Of a DNA stretch of 64,000 bases, positions 22,406-29,799 are shown piece after piece. The notes under the pieces are model-generated. The model was not told the DNA's origin. It saw nothing but the letters and a program-made list of their open reading frames with translations, and made no database searches. Position numbers and translations under genes: made by a program. The first letter of the stretch is position 1. Each line of letters starts with the position of its first letter. Location of the stretch: NCBI RefSeq assembly GCF_056712565.1, contig NZ_CM160072.1. One strand, written 5' to 3'.

Positions 22406-23509
22406 TTACTTCGCATCAGTCGCCGTGCCGTTGGCGTGCCAGTCAAACACACCGAACTCAAAGCCTTTCAGATCGCCTTTCTCATCCCAGGTCAGCGGCC
22501 CCATCACCGTATCAACCGAGTTCGCTTTCAGGTATTTAGCGATCTCCGCCGGATCGTCAGACTGATTCAGGCCCGCTTGCAAAGATTGCAGCGCGGCGTA
22601 GGTGGTCCAGACGAACGCGCCGCTTGGGTCCTGTTTTTTCGCTTTGATCGCGTCAACAATCGGTTTGTTCGCCGGAACCTGATCGTAGTTCTTCGGCTTG
22701 GTCACCAGCAGCCCTTCCGCTGATTCGCCCGCAATGTTAGACAGCGAGACGTTAGCCACGCCTTCTGGCCCCATAAACTGAGTTTTCAGCCCTGCCGCGC
22801 GTGCCTGACGCAGGATTTGCCCCATTTCCGGGTGATAACCGCCGTAGTAAACGAAATCGATATTCTCTTTCTTCAAACGCGCCACCAGGGTAGAGAAATC
22901 TTTTTCCCCGGCGGTGATGCCATCAAAGAACACCACGTTAGCATTGCCTTTCTTCAGGCCGTCCTGCACTGCACGCGCCAGACCTTCGCCGTACTGCTGT
23001 TTGTCGTGAACGATAGCAATGCGTTGCGGTTTCACTTTCTCAAGTATATATTTCGCCGCCGTCGGCCCCTGGTCTGAGTCCAGGCCGGTGGTGCGCAGGA
23101 TCAGCTGATAGCCACGGGCGGTCAGCTCTGGTGCGGTTGCCGCTGGGGTGATCATTAAAATGCCTTCGTCTTCGTAGATGTCAGACGCTGGCTGCGTTGA
23201 TGAAGAGCAGAGGTGACCAATCACGTATTTAATGCCGTCGTTAACGACTTTGTTCGCCACCGCAACCGCCTGTTTCGGGTCACAGGCATCGTCATATTTT
23301 ACGATTTGCAGTTTGTTGCCTTTGATACCACCTTTAGCATTGATATCCGCAACCGCCTGCTCTGCGCCAGTAAACTCCTGGTCACCGTACTGCGCCACCG
23401 GACCGGACATTGCGCCTACGACGGCGACTTTAATATCTTCTGCCAGAGCCATATTGCTGAATGCCAGCGCGATACATCCTGCCAGTAACGCTTTACCCTT
23501 TATGTTCAT
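22406..23509 (-). CDS. livJ: Leu/Ile/Val periplasmic binding protein
   Basis: Native start [11 protein letters not shown] gives 367 aa with signal peptide; matches LivJ. Confidence 0.9.
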
Positions 23510-24443
23510 CCTGAGAATCCCCACTCTTCTGGTTATTACGTGTGTTGTGATGTTGTTGTGCAGCACTTTATTTCGTTTTATACGTAGCTACCCGTGCTTT
23601 AGCAGCATACTCTGCTAAAACATACCCCATTTTTATGATATTGGAATAGCTATTTTGACAGTTTATTAACAATCTGCGGGACAGTTGGCTTTTTCTACAA
23701 GAAGAAATTCACCTAAACAAGCGTTGGGGTAAAAATAGCCTGGTACATCAAATGATGATGCCATCACGCATACCTCAAACCTGAGCACGATAAAGCTTAC
23801 CGAGCAAAATACATCACAATTCCCGTAATCAAATAAACAAAGTAATGGCAATAAACATTGCTGATAACTAGCCTGTACTCAGTTTTGGAATGGACCTCCC
23901 TTGAGCATTTTTCCTGATATGTTGTCTGGTTTCAAATATTCCTCATACCCCCCAAATGTTGCTCTATAGCATTTAATCTATTAGTAGAAACGGCTATAGC
24001 TCAATTGTGTTTTTCCAGATTGAGCATATCCCTTTTCCCATCCTGAAATTTAAAACAAGCATTAAATATATATAATTAGCATAAAGTCTATCTTCTTTAA
24101 GCGTAATACGTCCTCTTTTTATATATAATTCTTATAAATCATAAGTGTTGATTTATTTACTCGACGTATTTTTGGTTCACTGGAATATATTCATTAAATA
24201 AATATAAAAGTATTCAATTATCATTAATTATGATGAACAGCACATCATAAGCCCTGTTTTTTATTACAAACAATTTATTAGCAATTTTAGCTAATGCTAT
24301 CAACTGTGATCTTGCTAACATTATCGCCAAATAAAAACAATATAATCAAAGGCCAAAGGTTACCTTGCTGAAAGCTAAAAACATTCATGTGTTGAATATT
24401 ATTTATTATCTATCCTCTGTACATATTAAAAGGAATTTATCAT

Positions 24444-24845
24444 TTGAACCAGTTCAATATTATAATTCTGACACACGGTGAGGCAGGGAATGCTTTACTC
24501 GCCAGTAGCGAAATGATTGTAGGTAAAACACCGCATACTACAGCTATTTCTCTGATGCCGGGAATGTCACCTGAAGCACTTATGCAACAAGTAAAAACCA
24601 TACTCAATCCTGATGTAGAAACAATCATATTTACGGATATTTATGGCGGCACACCTTCAAATATCGCCTACCTTCTTTCACGAGAATTTCCCATTCGCTG
24701 CATCAGCGGTGTCAATCTGGCAATGTTAATTGAAGCCAACATGTTACAGGATTCTGACGAAGAACAGTCCTTTGATGAATATATTCAGCATATACATGAT
24801 GCTGGTAAAGAGATGATTCAAACTTATTGTTTTAATAAAGGATGA
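24444..24845 (+). CDS. PTS mannose/sorbose-family EIIA component (accessory)
   Basis: 133 aa; aligns with the ManX IIA domain (IIILTHGEAGNALL vs IVIGTHGWAAEQLL; TDIYGGTPSN vs VDTWGGSPFN; GVNLAMLIE). TTG start with an AAGGAA RBS. Confidence 0.8.
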   Translation: MNQFNIIILTHGEAGNALLASSEMIVGKTPHTTAISLMPGMSPEALMQQVKTILNPDVETIIFTDIYGGTPSNIAYLLSREFPIRCISGVNLAMLIEANMLQDSDEEQSFDEYIQHIHDAGKEMIQTYCFNKG

Positions 24846-24851
24846 TAAACT

Positions 24852-25337
24852 ATGAGTATAGTACATGCCCGTATTGATTACCGTTTAATTCATGGACAAG
24901 TCATAACAAAATGGCTAAAAAGGAGTGATGCAAATAAAATAATTGTTATTGATGATCCCTTGTCACGCGATCCTTTCCTGGCTGAAGTCTATAAGATGGC
25001 AGCGCCAAGTGGTGTTGAAGTCATAATGACCTCCATTGAAGATACGTTACAACGCTGGAACAGCAATAGTTTCTATGAAGGTAAATTACTAATTCTTTTC
25101 AAATCGATCGATTCTGCATTAAAAACTATACAAGGTGGTTTGATGTTAGAGGAATTACAAGTCGGTGGTGTTGAAAATACTCCGGGAAGAAAAATTGTCT
25201 TTAACCAAATATCACTCAACCACGAAGATGCCGACAAACTTCAAATCATCGAAGATAAGAATATCAAAGTTTATTTCCAAACTATTCCTGAAGAAGATCC
25301 TGCCAGCCTACAAAAAATCAAAAATAAGTTACCTTAA
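24852..25337 (+). CDS. PTS mannose/sorbose-family EIIB component
   Basis: 161 aa; conserved phospho-His motif ARIDYRLIHGQV as in ManX-IIB and LevE. Confidence 0.8.
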   Translation: MSIVHARIDYRLIHGQVITKWLKRSDANKIIVIDDPLSRDPFLAEVYKMAAPSGVEVIMTSIEDTLQRWNSNSFYEGKLLILFKSIDSALKTIQGGLMLEELQVGGVENTPGRKIVFNQISLNHEDADKLQIIEDKNIKVYFQTIPEEDPASLQKIKNKLP

Positions 25338-25353
25338 TTAAGGAGAGGAGCTT

Positions 25354-26100
25354 ATGTCTATTTTTACAGCAGCAATGATTGCCCTGGTATATTGGATATC
25401 CCAAGCAAAAGTATGGTACGGCTTTTCTATTATGCGTATGCCATTATCGATAGCACCTATTATGGGACTCATCTTTAATGATATGCCAACTGCTTTATCT
25501 GTTGGGGCCACCTTACAGATGATCTATATCGGGAGTATTGCCCCGGGAGGAAATCCTCCTGCAGATGAAGGTCTAGCCTCGTGTATAGCAATTCCAATTG
25601 CACTTACCGCAGGTATTAAACCAGAAATTGCTATCTCTTTGGCTATTCCACTGGGATTGCTCGGCGTTGTTCTGGAAAACGTACGTAAAACACTGAATAC
25701 CACATTTATCCACATGGCTGATCGCTACGCAGAAAAAGGTGATATAAAAGGCATCCAACGCGCAGCCACAATATATCCTCTCCTGTTAGCCTTTCCGATG
25801 CGTTTTGTACCGGTATTCATCGCCTGCCTGTATGGCCCGGATGCCATTGCCTCTTTTGTAAACCTGCTTCCCGCCTGGTCGACGAATGGCCTGGCAATTG
25901 CCGGTAATATTCTGCCTGCACTCGGTTTTGCGATAACCATAATTGTTATCGGTAAGAAACAATACATCCCTCTGTTCATTATTGGCTTTTTCCTCGTGAC
26001 CTATTCAGGCTTGAATACCATTGGCATCTCTATTTTTGGACTCTGTGCCGTCCTCTTATATATGCAGTCACAAAATACAAAAGGAACTAAAAATGGATAA
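25354..26100 (+). CDS. PTS mannose/sorbose-family EIIC membrane component
   Basis: 248-aa polytopic membrane ORF between IIB and IID; size and position typical of Man-family IIC. Confidence 0.75.
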   Translation: MSIFTAAMIALVYWISQAKVWYGFSIMRMPLSIAPIMGLIFNDMPTALSVGATLQMIYIGSIAPGGNPPADEGLASCIAIPIALTAGIKPEIAISLAIPLGLLGVVLENVRKTLNTTFIHMADRYAEKGDIKGIQRAATIYPLLLAFPMRFVPVFIACLYGPDAIASFVNLLPAWSTNGLAIAGNILPALGFAITIIVIGKKQYIPLFIIGFFLVTYSGLNTIGISIFGLCAVLLYMQSQNTKGTKNG

Positions 26101-26947
26101 TATAATTGAGTCAGGATACTCAGAATCCTCCCCTATTACGAAAAGAGACGTTCAGATTGTTTGGCTAAAATGGCACGCGTTCTCTGAAACATCATTGAAC
26201 TTTGAACGTTTACAAGCACTGGCATTTTGCAATGCAATGACAGGCGTATTGGCGAAGCTATACCCAGATGAAAAAGATCTCGCCAAAGCCTTACAGCGCC
26301 ATTTAACCATGTTCAACACACAGGCTAACTGGGGCTCGGTTATCGCTGGTATTAGTATTGCACTGGAGGAAAAAGCCGCCCAGGAATCAGAAGAACAACG
26401 TGAATCAACAACACAACTTGTTACGGGTTTAAAAACTGGTCTTATGGGGCCTGTATCGGGTATTGGTGACACGTTAGACTTTGGTACATTGCGTCCCATT
26501 GTTATTGGTGTCTGTATCCCGTTTGTTATTCAGGGATATGTTATTGCTGCACTTCTCCCCCTGATTTACCAGGTTAGTTATATGTTCTTCGCCAGTCGAT
26601 TTGCTCTTAATATCGGCTATAAAAAAGGGAAAGAGTCAATTCTGGAAATCTTGCATTCCGGGAGCATACATCGAATTATCGAAGGTGCTGGAATGTTCGG
26701 GCTGTTGATGATGGGGGCGCTTTCAGCAACGTATGTAAAAATTAAGACGCCATTGCATATTACAACCGGCGGTGGCAATACCATTGTCTTACAGGATATG
26801 CTAGATAAAATTGTCCCTAACATGTTGCCACTTATTGCCGTGTTGGGTATTTATTTTTACATACAAAAATGTGGCCCTCATTTCTTACGTATTCTGGTCA
26901 CTATTCTTGTTTTGAGTCTTGCATTTTCTTTCTTTGGCCTTTTATAA
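26093..26947 (+). CDS. PTS mannose/sorbose-family EIID membrane component
   Basis: ATG at 26093 with RBS AAGGAA, overlapping the IIC stop by 8 bp; 284 aa with hydrophilic N-terminus then TM segments. The ORF track start at 26021 is an extension. Confidence 0.75.
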   Translation: MDNIIESGYSESSPITKRDVQIVWLKWHAFSETSLNFERLQALAFCNAMTGVLAKLYPDEKDLAKALQRHLTMFNTQANWGSVIAGISIALEEKAAQESEEQRESTTQLVTGLKTGLMGPVSGIGDTLDFGTLRPIVIGVCIPFVIQGYVIAALLPLIYQVSYMFFASRFALNIGYKKGKESILEILHSGSIHRIIEGAGMFGLLMMGALSATYVKIKTPLHITTGGGNTIVLQDMLDKIVPNMLPLIAVLGIYFYIQKCGPHFLRILVTILVLSLAFSFFGLL

Positions 26948-26948
26948 A

Positions 26949-27869
26949 ATGAAAAAGATAATTATCACTCCCCGGCCTTTTGTGGGTAAAGGCAAGGTCT
27001 ATATTGATAAGTTAAAATCCGCAGGTTATCAAGTTGAATGTAATAACAGTGGAGGTCGATATAGCAAGGAAGAACTCATCGAGAAAATTAAAGACGCGAA
27101 TGCCATTATCACCGGAAACGATCCTCTGAGCAGAGAAGTTATTGATCAGGCAAAAAACCTGAAGGTTATTTCAAAATATGGCGTAGGGTTAGATAACATA
27201 GATGTCGATTACGCAAATAGTAAAGACATCGTGGTACATAAAGCTCTTAATGCTAACTCTATTTCTGTTGCAGAAATGACCATTCTGATGATGCTCTCCA
27301 GTTCCCGAAAATATGTTGAAATCGAGAGTCAGGCAAGAAATGGTAAGGACATCAGGCTTGTCGGGTATGAGCTATATCAAAAAAATCTGGGATTAATTGG
27401 ACTTGGTGCAATTGGTCAACATGTTGCTCATATTGCTCATTCTATGGGAATGACGATTACTGCTCATGATCCTCATATTGATAAAAGCAAGGTTCCATCC
27501 TATATAGAACTTAAATCACCTGATGAAATATATCAGTACAGCGATGTAATTTCTCTGCATTTACCTTTACTGGACAGTACTCGCAATATAATTAACGACT
27601 CTGTATTTGAGAAAATGAAATCTTCGGCTATTTTAATCAATACAGCCAGGGGTGGATTGGTCGATGAGAAAAGTTTATATACCGCACTTAGCAATCAGAA
27701 AATTGCTTTTGCCAGTGAAGATATTGAACTGAGAGAACGTTCAAAAGAACTCACCGAACTTAAAAATTATTCTATTACCCCTCATGCCGCTTCATTTACC
27801 GATGAGGCCGACCATAACACAATGCAAATTTCTATTAAAAACGTATTACAGGAACTGGAGAAAGAGTAA
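26949..27869 (+). CDS. D-isomer-specific 2-hydroxyacid dehydrogenase family, NAD-dependent
   Basis: 306 aa; Rossmann GLIGLGAIGQ and catalytic-region motifs (INTARGGLVDE, PHAA); start overlaps the IID stop region. Confidence 0.75.
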   Translation: MKKIIITPRPFVGKGKVYIDKLKSAGYQVECNNSGGRYSKEELIEKIKDANAIITGNDPLSREVIDQAKNLKVISKYGVGLDNIDVDYANSKDIVVHKALNANSISVAEMTILMMLSSSRKYVEIESQARNGKDIRLVGYELYQKNLGLIGLGAIGQHVAHIAHSMGMTITAHDPHIDKSKVPSYIELKSPDEIYQYSDVISLHLPLLDSTRNIINDSVFEKMKSSAILINTARGGLVDEKSLYTALSNQKIAFASEDIELRERSKELTELKNYSITPHAASFTDEADHNTMQISIKNVLQELEKE

Positions 27870-28753
27870 TGAAAGAGCTCAAAGGGATTATTACCGCAAT
27901 GGTAACGCCTTTCGATGAAACGGAAAAAATGGATATCACTGCGGCGAAAAAAATGGCGCGCTGGTTAGTAGATAATGGTGTTCATGGTTTATTCATTTGC
28001 GGAACTAATGGTGAATTCCATTTGCTTTCCGATGACGAAAAAGTTGAGTTAACAAAAGCCGTCGTTGAAGAGGTCGGTAATGAAGTTACCATTTGTGCAG
28101 GTGCTGGGTGCTGCAGCACAAAACAAACCATCGAATTGACTAAACGGTTAGTTGATGCGGGTGCCGATTATATTTCTGTTGTCACGCCGTACTATCTGGT
28201 ACCAAATCAGGAAGATTTATACCGTCACTATTACGATATTGCCTTTAGCACAACAGCCCCCATCATTCTCTATAACCTGCCGGGCCAGACAGGATTAAGC
28301 ATCGAATACGAAACGGCAAATCGTTTAGCCGATATCAAAAATATCGTAGCGATAAAAGACAGTAGCGGTAAATTCGAAGTCCAGAAACAGTATCTGGAAA
28401 TCGCTAAACATAAAAACTTTAAGGTATTAAACGGCTCTGACTCGTTAATGCTGGATGCATTTAAAGAAGGTTCTGTGGCTGCTGTCGCTGCAACGTCGAA
28501 TGTTCTGCCTACGATTGAAGTCGATTTATATAATTACTTCATGGCCGGTGAAATGGAGAAGGCGCAGGAAGAGCGTAATAAAATGGATGCACTGCGCATG
28601 ACGATCAAGAAAATGACCGCGCCTGCAGTAATGAAGGAAGCATTAAACCTGATGGGTGTGAAGGCAGGTATTACACGTAGACCAATTCATATGCCAAACG
28701 ACGCGATCGTTGAAGACATCAAGGAAATGTTGAAAGGCTATAATTTCCTGTAA
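27869..28753 (+). CDS. DapA/NanA-family class I aldolase or lyase (Schiff-base lysine)
   Basis: 294 aa; motifs GTNGEF, YNLPGQTG and AIKDSSG (Schiff-base Lys) as in dihydrodipicolinate synthase and N-acetylneuraminate lyase; TAATG overlap with the dehydrogenase. Confidence 0.75.
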   Translation: MKELKGIITAMVTPFDETEKMDITAAKKMARWLVDNGVHGLFICGTNGEFHLLSDDEKVELTKAVVEEVGNEVTICAGAGCCSTKQTIELTKRLVDAGADYISVVTPYYLVPNQEDLYRHYYDIAFSTTAPIILYNLPGQTGLSIEYETANRLADIKNIVAIKDSSGKFEVQKQYLEIAKHKNFKVLNGSDSLMLDAFKEGSVAAVAATSNVLPTIEVDLYNYFMAGEMEKAQEERNKMDALRMTIKKMTAPAVMKEALNLMGVKAGITRRPIHMPNDAIVEDIKEMLKGYNFL

Positions 28754-28796
28754 AGGACAAATGCCGGATGTATCTCTTGTCCTACAAGATAGCGTA

Positions 28797-28826
28797 AACA
28801 AAAACCCCCGGACTCAAATCCAGGGG
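28797..28826 (-). terminator. Rho-independent terminator of rpoH; also closes the convergent PTS island
   Basis: Minus-strand RNA cccctgga-loop-tccggggg followed by UUUUU, 30-60 nt after the rpoH stop. Confidence 0.6.
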
Positions 28827-28856
28827 TTATCTGTGGCAACTTAACGCGCTGCGCGA

Positions 28857-29711
28857 TTACGCTTCAATAGCAGCGCGAAGTTTTTTCATCGCGTTCTTTT
28901 CCAGCTGGCGCACACGCTCAGCGGAAACACCGTAACGGTCAGCCAGTTCCTGCAACGTGGACTTATTGTCTTCGTCCAGCCAGCGCGCGCGGATGATATC
29001 CTGGCTACGCTCGTCCAGACCTTGCATCGCGTCGGTCAGACGGTTTGCTGCCTGCTCTTCCCAGTTATCATCTTCAATGCCGTCGGCAAAGTTAGATGAT
29101 TTATCCTGCAGATAGAGCACCGGAGCCATCGGCTGGCTGTCGGAATCGTCGTCGGAAGACAGGTCAAAGGTCATGTCCTGTGCTGCCATACGTGATTCCA
29201 TCTCACGTACGTCTTTACTGGTTACGCCCAGTTCACGGGCCACCATTTCGACTTCATCCTGGTTAAACCAGCCCAGACGCTGCTTGGTTTTACGCAGGTT
29301 AAAGAACAGTTTGCGCTGCGCTTTGGTGGTCGCAACTTTGACGATACGCCAGTTACGCAGAACGTATTCGTGGATCTCTGCTTTGATCCAGTGGACGGCG
29401 AAGGAGACCAGGCGCACACCCACTTCCGGGTTAAAACGGCGCACTGCTTTCATCAGGCCGATGTTACCTTCCTGAATCAAATCCGCCTGTGGCAGGCCAT
29501 AGCCCGCATAATTACGAGCAATATGAACAACAAACCGCAGGTGAGACAGGATCAGCGTTTTAGCTGCTTCCAGATCGCCATGGTAATGCAGCTTTTCAGC
29601 CAGCGCCCGCTCCTCGTCAGCCGACAACATCGGCCACGCGTTAGCTGCCCGGATGTAGGAATCCAGGTTGCCAACTGGGGCTAAAGCTAAACTTTGCATT
29701 TTGTCAGTCAT
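28857..29711 (-). CDS. rpoH: RNA polymerase sigma-32 (heat-shock sigma factor)
   Basis: 284 aa; translation matches RpoH, including the RpoH box region. Confidence 0.95.
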
Positions 29712-29799
29712 TCAAATCCTCTCAATCGATATCTTCTGGCGCTTTAGTGGTAGCAACAACTGTGCCAGAGCTTAAGAGCAACGAGGTTATCATTCACTG

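Follow-up and report, generated by a model that had tools for sequence, protein, structure and literature searches.

In Escherichia coli K-12 the genes livJ and rpoH are neighbours, 270 bp apart. What, then, is the role of the six genes that separate them in the stretch analysed here, 64,000 nucleotides of contig NZ_CM160072.1 from RefSeq assembly GCF_056712565.1 (the window)? An annotation made from the letters alone (the original prediction) had described them as an accessory island that encodes a mannose-family phosphotransferase system (PTS), a 2-hydroxyacid dehydrogenase and a lyase. It had taken K-12 to lack them, and a check of K-12 for the genes was negative. We give about an even chance to the reading that they would form an anciently acquired, foreign and still functional catabolic operon for an acid sugar.

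The six genes lie on the plus strand in the order IIA (24444-24845, with a TTG start), IIB (24852-25337), IIC (25354-26100), IID (26093-26947), the dehydrogenase gene (26949-27869) and the lyase gene (27869-28753). The RefSeq annotation of strain UTI89 gives identical coordinates for all of them. IIC and IID overlap by 8 nt, a single nucleotide separates IID from the dehydrogenase gene, and the latter overlaps the lyase gene by 1 nt. The open reading frames, the UTI89 coordinates and these junctions bear out the tight coupling that had been claimed. Both flanking genes are on the minus strand: livJ (22406-23509; locus tag UTI89_C3969 in UTI89, PMC9241551) on the left and rpoH (28857-29711) on the right. 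The operon is transcribed head-on toward the GC-rich rpoH terminator hairpin (28803-28828), which was located by a terminator scan and by alignment with K-12.

Local alignment with the K-12 livJ-rpoH intergenic region shows that native DNA ends at about 23679-23694 on the left and restarts at about 28796, in the rpoH terminator, on the right. About 5.1 kb therefore substitutes for roughly 35-50 nt. The insert is thus present as predicted, if slightly narrower than the 5.3 kb (23567-28856) first assigned to it. Its GC content is 0.28-0.44 against 0.53-0.57 in the flanks. Inspection of the open reading frames within the insert finds no gene for EI or HPr (ptsI, ptsH) or for a regulator, as had been noted, and no integrase, transposase or tRNA gene. 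The only flanking direct or inverted repeats are short, of chance level, and none brackets the insert. It therefore lacks the hallmarks of a classical mobile genomic island. Nor is there evidence that the ~50 nt specific to the K-12 'empty' site derive from the insert (best local score 26, against a mean of 23 and a maximum of 34 for shuffled sequences).

The four PTS proteins are assigned by NCBIfam models to the mannose/fructose/sorbose IIA, IIB, IIC and IID families with E-values of 1e-18 to 2e-53. IIA, an EIIA of the mannose family, matches TIGR00824 (1.1e-18) and IIB, an EIIB of the mannose/sorbose family, matches TIGR00854 (4.2e-29). The mannose-family EIIC is recognized by the AgaW model (1e-40) and the EII-Sor model (2.6e-39), below every equivalog cut-off, and the mannose-family EIID by TIGR00828 (2.3e-53). 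Orthologues from Escherichia albertii, 83-98% identical to the window proteins, carry PF03610, PF03830, PF03609 and PF03613, respectively. The phospho-histidines are kept, His10 of IIA in THG (...ILTHGEAG) and His14 of IIB in RLIHGQV, the two motifs on which the Man/Sor/Lev-family assignment had originally been based; the translations carry LNQFNIIILTHGEAG and MSIVHARIDYRLIHGQV. Family models and phospho-His motifs together point to a four-component mannose-family PTS (TC 4.A.6). Membership of a subfamily of known substrate (Man, Aga or Gam) was not found, since all equivalog and subfamily models stay under their curated cut-offs. Examples are bit scores of 65.5 vs 400, 155.3 vs 400, 139.7 vs 300 (AgaW) and 153.9 vs 365 (ManZ-type IID). 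IIC is 72-79% identical in amino acids to homologues of Gram-positive anaerobes.

The last gene encodes a class I (Schiff-base) lyase of the DapA/NanA family, and NCBIfam upholds this assignment as well as that of the dehydrogenase. The catalytic residues are invariant: the Schiff-base Lys163 and the Tyr/Thr/Tyr relay of Tyr135, Thr46 and Tyr109. The closest solved structures are true DapA enzymes (E=2e-51). However, alignment with the DapA structures of Corynebacterium glutamicum and Bacillus anthracis puts Gln140 of the lyase opposite DapA Arg138 (E. coli numbering), within a motif that reads YNLPGQTG in the lyase and Y(D/N)(I/V)PGRS in DapA. Arg138 is the residue by which DapA binds the carboxylate of aspartate semialdehyde. 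Gln140 is invariant in an alignment of 18 clade members, which also have invariant motifs of their own: GTNGEFHL, YN(I/L)P(G/S)QTG, IKDS and NGSDS. The lyase passes the TIGR00674 dapA model narrowly (214.7 bits vs a cut-off of 206.15) and misses both NanA models (168.2 vs 281 for NF003164; 134.4 vs 382 for TIGR00683). The cut-offs for KdgD and KD(P)G aldolase are not reached either. The TIM-barrel fold, the lysine and the relay are common to the lyase, DapA, NanA, YagE/YjhH and archaeal KD(P)G aldolase; within this family, the lyase clade is set apart by a genomic context that always includes a PTS or an acid-sugar kinase and never lysine biosynthesis.

The dehydrogenase is an NAD-type D-2-hydroxyacid dehydrogenase of 306 aa that consists of the SerA/PdxB-like catalytic core only; NCBIfam finds no C-terminal regulatory (ACT) domain in its 306 residues. 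Its orthologues carry PF00389 and PF02826, as expected of the D-isomer-specific 2-hydroxyacid dehydrogenase superfamily. By NCBIfam score its nearest named family is phosphoglycerate dehydrogenase (PGDH), although the scores are far from qualifying (243.3 bits vs a cut-off of 454, spanning positions 16-301 of a 525-position model, and 154.6 vs 404 for a second model). PdxB models are weaker still (89.1 vs 434 and 55.4 vs 687). The best solved relative is 1wwk, with which GLGAIG (the GxGxxG NAD-binding motif), NTARGG and TPHA align; the conserved arginine and histidine of the family are present. At two positions where the archaeal PGDH has arginine ('vrs' and 'ar-ag'), which we take to be substrate-binding, the dehydrogenase has 'tgn' and 'sk-yg' instead. 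SerA and PdxB each act on phosphorylated hydroxy acids, whose C2 hydroxyl they oxidise. The SerA/PdxB/KguD branch, which shares fold and catalytic residues with the dehydrogenase, interconverts C2 hydroxyl and keto groups on 3-phosphoglycerate, 4-phosphoerythronate and 2-keto-6-phosphogluconate; the dehydrogenase differs in its core-only length and in scores far under every equivalog cut-off.

RefSeq names the two enzymes (WP_001332164.1 and WP_000661262.1; window 26949-28753) 'phosphoglycerate dehydrogenase' and 'dapA: 4-hydroxy-tetrahydrodipicolinate synthase'. Since the lyase lacks Arg138 and the dehydrogenase scores far under the SerA cut-off, both names are probably wrong, that is, over-annotations.

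What pathway might these proteins make up? Because SerA is the nearest named family and SerA and PdxB oxidise at C2, the most economical scheme would be uptake with phosphorylation, C2 oxidation and aldol cleavage. EI and HPr of the host would feed the mannose-family EIIABCD, which would import the substrate and phosphorylate it at a terminal hydroxyl. The SerA/PdxB-like enzyme would then oxidise the C2 hydroxyl of the phospho-acid with NAD to give a 2-keto acid. This would form a Schiff base with Lys163 of the DapA-like lyase and be split to pyruvate and a phosphorylated aldehyde, or to hydroxypyruvate in place of pyruvate if C3 bears a hydroxyl. A 3-deoxy-hexonate, the simplest substrate to assume, would yield glyceraldehyde-3-phosphate as this aldehyde. 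From the gene families, catalytic residues and gene order we infer the sequence of reactions, the site of phosphorylation, the products and the kind of substrate. The original prediction had suggested catabolism of a keto-deoxy or an amino sugar acid. The sugar-acid idea gains support from the present analysis, but the amino-sugar-acid option is without it because neither a deaminase nor a deacetylase is encoded.

Relatives outside the genus lend weight to this outline. The nearest of them occur in Gram-positive anaerobes of the gut, the mouth and fermentations. Lyase identity is 71% on a fermentation-metagenome contig, 65% in Olsenella uli and Solobacterium, 60% in Clostridium innocuum and 56% in Sporolactobacillus. 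The order IIA-IIB-IIC-IID-dehydrogenase-lyase recurs in Erysipelotrichaceae (C. innocuum), Olsenella, Sporolactobacillus and fermentation-metagenome contigs, with lyases 54-71% identical to that of the window. The dehydrogenase gene lies between IID and the lyase gene in 13 of 14 loci, these being the fetched loci that span the IID-lyase junction and have a lyase of 54% identity or more. This recurrence across phyla suggests that the cassette is a self-contained and self-sufficient unit. Two loci add an HpcH/GarL-type 2-keto-3-deoxy-acid aldolase and a second 2-hydroxyacid dehydrogenase. In some strains of C. innocuum the cassette sits amid resolvase, ISL3 transposase and relaxase-like genes.

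Every one of these Gram-positive relatives has a regulator beside the cassette. At five loci it is a CdaR/PucR-type protein with a sugar-diacid sensor domain, coupled to an extra EIIB (L005/6, L009, L016 by tblastn, L058 and L059). A LevR-like sigma-54 activator with PRD and EIIA domains is found at two others (L008, L057), and one Erysipelotrichaceae contig has a Mga-type PRD/EIIA regulator. It follows that the regulator was either lost in Escherichia or never transferred there.

The CdaR/PucR-type arrangement is of interest in itself. The regulator (Diacid_rec plus HTH_30) is translationally coupled to an orphan EIIB(Man) with the phospho-His motif RIDDRLLHTQ; the pair spans 4496-6084 of L005, 2962-4597 of L009, about 4650-6240 of L016, 10980-12606 of L058 and 4691-6284 of L059. 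We know of no such pairing in the literature. It could mean that a CdaR-family regulator is controlled by PTS phosphorylation.

More distant lyase relatives (40-46%) cluster with a sigma-54 activator, an iron alcohol dehydrogenase (Fe-ADH) and a DUF1537 acid-sugar kinase (D-threonate-kinase model, 6.5e-84). One such cluster occupies 8091-17938 of L021, and at least 20 similar loci occur in Clostridium, Paenibacillus and the Bacillus group (L025-L056). In ten loci the DUF1537 kinase is joined by a 2-hydroxyacid dehydrogenase and by an MFS transporter for acid sugars; L021 encodes two phospho-furanose (pentonolactone-5-phosphate) lactonases. The logic common to these clusters and to the window would be to transport, phosphorylate, oxidise and split, the PTS taking the place of both transporter and kinase in the window; by analogy, the DUF1537 clusters look like a kinase-based version of the same scheme. 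Published DUF1537 pathways for threonate and erythronate use PdxA2 or LtnD/OtnI/OtnC and are not known to involve a DapA-like lyase. In the literature searched, no described pathway combines a DUF1537 kinase, a DapA-like lyase and an Fe-ADH. Together with the self-sufficiency of the cassette, the CdaR-type sensors and the HpcH/GarL add-ons, these clusters argue for an acid sugar that is phosphorylated and then split.

A wider interpretation, which is possible and which we put forward tentatively, is that the operon would be the Escherichia member of a patchily distributed phospho-acid-sugar route. Its core would be the 2-hydroxyacid dehydrogenase and the DapA-like lyase, supplied by a mannose-family PTS in some cases and by a DUF1537 kinase in others. 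An acid from host or diet, new as a PTS sugar, would be the substrate and would serve as a private nutrient for ST95-type extraintestinal E. coli and for E. albertii. Examples would be a 3-deoxy-aldonate from Maillard/3-deoxyglucosone chemistry, a tetronate or pentonate derived from ascorbate, or KDO.

Several points weigh against the scheme of import, C2 oxidation and cleavage. In locus L018 the PTS genes are followed directly by the lyase gene, with no dehydrogenase gene between them, on a contig that ends inside the lyase gene. Were a 2-keto-3-deoxy acid the compound that is imported, the pathway could do without the dehydrogenase. The closest relative outside Escherichia (L008) has zinc and iron alcohol dehydrogenases after the lyase, and behind the distant lyase relatives there is always an Fe-ADH, which may point to an aldehyde product outside central metabolism. 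We know of no precedent for a class I DapA-family aldolase that releases hydroxypyruvate. Finally, the KpsF-like isomerase and Eda genes found in variants from Negativicutes and Lactobacillales do not fit a simple scheme. In those variants (L019, L020, L022-L024, L038, L046, L048) a 200-aa KpsF/GutQ-like SIS isomerase precedes or follows the lyase relative, often with an Eda-type aldolase and sometimes with a mannose-type or ascorbate-type PTS, and they make up a different variant of the module.

Some of these observations would be accommodated if the PTS imported a 2-keto-3-deoxy-hexonate of the KDG/KDGal type. The lyase would then act as a KDPG/KDPGal-type aldolase that yields pyruvate and glyceraldehyde-3-phosphate, while the dehydrogenase would be a side entrance or exit, e.g. 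to interconvert a 2-hydroxy congener or to reduce a keto-acid product for redox balance. The arrangement in L018 is what this model would expect, the lyase fits the archaeal KD(P)G aldolase model (4.8e-36), HpcH/GarL-type aldolases occur as add-ons and Eda adjoins the distant relatives. We nevertheless regard it as unlikely, if the most serious rival. The dehydrogenase gene keeps its place between IID and the lyase gene in 13 of the 14 loci counted above and is under purifying selection (dN/dS, w=0.09, between E. coli and E. albertii). Moreover, E. coli already owns KdgT, KdgK and Eda, which serve its use of KDG.

We think it quite unlikely that an ordinary aldonate, e.g. some unusual epimer of a hexonate or pentonate, serves as substrate. 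Once it had been phosphorylated and oxidised at C2, the lyase would split it to hydroxypyruvate and a phospho-aldehyde, and the dehydrogenase that had carried out the oxidation would reduce the hydroxypyruvate to D-glycerate in a redox-neutral route. The dehydrogenase does match glyoxylate/hydroxypyruvate reductase models (4e-53 and 2.8e-38), and phospho-furanose lactonases are found in the kinase-type clusters. The CdaR family senses glycerate and sugar diacids in E. coli, so the CdaR-type regulators of the Gram-positive loci would be in keeping with such a route. Against it stand the lack of a glycerate kinase in the cassette and, as far as we know, of any hydroxypyruvate-using aldolase in the DapA family; it is also less parsimonious than the release of pyruvate.

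Is the operon, whatever its substrate, still of use to its Escherichia hosts? Carriers number 175 among 5,426 complete E. coli genomes (~3%), and in every one of them the operon lies on the chromosome, at the livJ-rpoH site. Carriers were defined by at least 99% identity over at least 80% of the insert, the integrity of the reading frames being checked in the fetched records only. They include UTI89, UM146, APEC O18, O1/O2:K1 APEC strains, EV36, NCTC11151 and the type strain ATCC 11775. In 5,250 genomes without the insert, just the first 58-95 nt of a query beginning at 23600 find a match. A different situation prevails in HH97, the sole such genome among the 5,426, where K-12-type intergenic DNA runs into the final ~160 bp of the lyase gene, with the terminator after it (L004 3782-4218; 98% identical to window 28634-28833). 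This junction reads as a deletion scar, which implies that the operon was lost from a K-12-like background. In AHB12 an IS1A is inserted in the lyase gene (L001 7520-8217). In SCU-306 (H110) the lyase is annotated just as 'family protein' and its match is 1 nt shorter, so that the gene may be frameshifted there. These two cases suggest occasional inactivation in single strains.

E. albertii has its own copies of all six genes, likewise between livJ and rpoH. At the nucleotide level these are 80-93% identical to the window, and livJ, rpoH and ftsX are 90-97% identical. Synonymous divergence between E. coli and E. albertii (dS) amounts to 0.32-1.10 in the genes of the insert and to 0.16-0.53 in the flanks, and dN/dS is 0.03-0.12 in every gene of the insert. 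The shared site, the divergence on the scale of the species and the low dN/dS indicate that the operon entered the genus no later than the split of the two species and that purifying selection has maintained it. In view also of the deletion scar in HH97, it is no recent insertion peculiar to one strain. The third known version, which is more diverged, comes from a metagenome contig (L013) whose first 30 nt belong to the livJ promoter region. When 100,044 species were scanned, each represented by one genome, no proteobacterium other than E. albertii had a lyase of this clade.

If the operon is functional, how would it be expressed? The leader upstream of IIA is 934 bp long. Within it lies a CRP-like site, TGTGATCTTGCTAACA (24305-24320, plus strand), with one mismatch to TGTGA-N6-TCACA, and a -10 hexamer TATAAT (24341-24346, plus strand) 36 nt from the start of that site. 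The three orthologous leaders (E. coli, E. albertii and L013) are 55% identical overall beyond an AT-rich spacer (see below), and share an invariant block that holds TGTGATCTTG(C/G)TAAC. The 36-nt offset from the CRP-like site to the -10 hexamer is kept in all three, the hexamer being TATAAT in E. coli, TATAAA in E. albertii and TATATA in L013. This geometry puts CRP near -41.5 and most likely corresponds to a class II CRP-dependent promoter, whose activity and transcription start we infer by analogy. It must be noted, as a point on the other side, that the CRP-like match is not statistically unusual on sequence alone (3 found vs 1.7 expected in the window). A sigma-70 scan missed the proposed promoter, since it is without a -35 hexamer, and found fewer promoter-like sites than in shuffled sequences. 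No sigma-54 promoter with up to 3 mismatches lies upstream of IIA in 23819-24698, and the sole match to known RNA families in 23400-29000 is sub-threshold, at chance level, at the rpoH terminator.

Two further elements of the leader may contribute. A palindrome, ATTAGC-N7-GCTAAT (24277-24295, plus strand), is a candidate operator for an unlinked regulator; it is identical in E. coli and E. albertii and degenerate in L013. The AT-rich spacer of 356 bp (23695-24050), in which no gene or RNA family was found, has a GC content of 0.28-0.38, only short open reading frames and no Rfam match. Each of the 175 E. coli genomes with the insert has one copy of it and no other complete E. coli genome has any; neither E. 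albertii nor L013 possesses it. H-NS silencing may act on this segment.

The original prediction had concluded that control of the operon must come from elsewhere. A tblastn search of 23400-24600 with the CdaR-like, extra-IIB and LevR-like proteins of Gram-positive relatives gave only noise, hence no remnant of a regulator upstream, and the comparison of neighbourhoods found regulators only beside the Gram-positive relatives. The conserved CRP-type promoter suggests how such control might be exerted. As the dedicated regulator of the Gram-positive relatives is missing, control would fall to cAMP-CRP acting on a class II sigma-70 promoter, perhaps to an unlinked factor at the palindrome, and probably to an H-NS-type silencing of the AT-rich leader.

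The same data could be taken to mean that the Escherichia operon is a silent relic, gained without its activator, never induced and on its way to being lost. This we consider improbable. The missing linked regulator would agree with it, as would the absence of the operon from ~97% of complete E. coli genomes, the deletion scar of HH97, the IS1 in the lyase gene of AHB12 and the very AT-rich leader with its likely H-NS binding. It is difficult to reconcile, however, with dN/dS of 0.03-0.12 over dS of 0.3-1.1 between E. coli and E. albertii, with the near-identity of the insert in the 175 carrier genomes as defined above, or with the conserved spacing of the CRP-like site and the -10 hexamer.

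More improbable again is an 8- or 9-carbon ulosonic acid (KDO-, KDN- or sialic-acid-like) as the substrate, with the lyase acting on the phospho-acid in the manner of NanA or a KDO aldolase to give pyruvate and a pentose or hexose phosphate. The NanA model is matched with E=2.4e-49, yet the scores are far under the cut-offs (168 vs 281 and 134 vs 382). A KpsF/GutQ-like SIS protein, of the arabinose-5-phosphate isomerase type, adjoins the lyase in the variants from Pelosinus, Propionispora, Massilibacillus, Lactobacillales and Marinilactibacillus, but the clade that includes the E. coli operon lacks it. The Gram-positive hosts have no obvious arabinose-5-phosphate route, and the dehydrogenase would be left without a role. 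Finally, the idea that the last two genes are biosynthetic paralogues merely beside a PTS (DapA for lysine and peptidoglycan, SerA for serine) is scarcely credible in spite of the RefSeq names and the narrow pass of the dapA model, since Gln140 replaces Arg138 throughout the clade, the PGDH score is 243 vs 454 with no ACT domain, and both genes are joined to the PTS by translational coupling and have been inherited along with it in different phyla.

How does the acid-sugar operon compare with described systems? The closest is dgaABCDEF of Salmonella, whose mannose-family EIIABCD imports and phosphorylates D-glucosaminate, from which a 2-keto-3-deoxy phospho-acid is made and split to pyruvate and glyceraldehyde-3-phosphate. 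Its enzymes are DgaE, a PLP-dependent ammonia-lyase, and DgaF, an aldolase of the Eda type; its expression depends on sigma-54 and DgaR. The two operons are alike in the import of an acid sugar by a mannose-family PTS with operon-encoded enzymes. They differ in that the livJ-rpoH operon has a 2-hydroxyacid dehydrogenase and a DapA-family lyase, no linked regulator and no sigma-54 promoter. The man, sor and aga/gam systems and gfr of Salmonella have the four-subunit architecture, the phospho-His motifs and co-encoded catabolic enzymes in common with it. Their partner enzymes, i.e. SIS deglycase/deaminase, tagatose-bisphosphate aldolase and sorbose-1-phosphate reductase, are absent from it; its subunits fall under the curated cut-offs for man, aga and gam and have their nearest relatives in Gram-positive anaerobes. 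What is new with respect to the closest described systems is thus the enzyme pair, the lack of a linked regulator and the Gram-positive ancestry. In agreement with the initial view that the cluster is undescribed, no paper that assigns it was found in the open-access literature, although a description in a subscription journal is possible.

Strains of the ST95 complex, among them UTI89, APEC O1/O2/O18:K1 and neonatal-meningitis clones, are major extraintestinal pathogens, and the type strain of the species is also a carrier. A conserved and selected uptake operon that is missing from K-12 and most other complete E. coli genomes is a candidate niche determinant and lineage marker. If its substrate were identified, the list of PTS sugars would grow by one and DapA-like and SerA-like enzymes would gain a new function; this would also mend the 'dapA' and 'phosphoglycerate dehydrogenase' misannotation that has spread through RefSeq. 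The locus would also illustrate neatly how a catabolic cassette of Gram-positive origin, once its own regulator was lost, came under a CRP promoter.

Two observations concern the flanks of the insert. An exact match to the sigma-54 promoter consensus (TGGCACAGTTGTTGCT) lies at 29752-29767 on the minus strand, ~40 nt upstream of the rpoH start; it is presumably the known sigma-54-dependent rpoH promoter. On the other side, the gap between panM and livJ is just 187 bp in the window. In some strains of E. coli and E. albertii it holds a GNAT-acetyltransferase toxin and a TacA-like antitoxin, or frameshifted remnants of them (L004 2179-2530; L012 2000-2800), and is thus a second variable spot of this neighbourhood.

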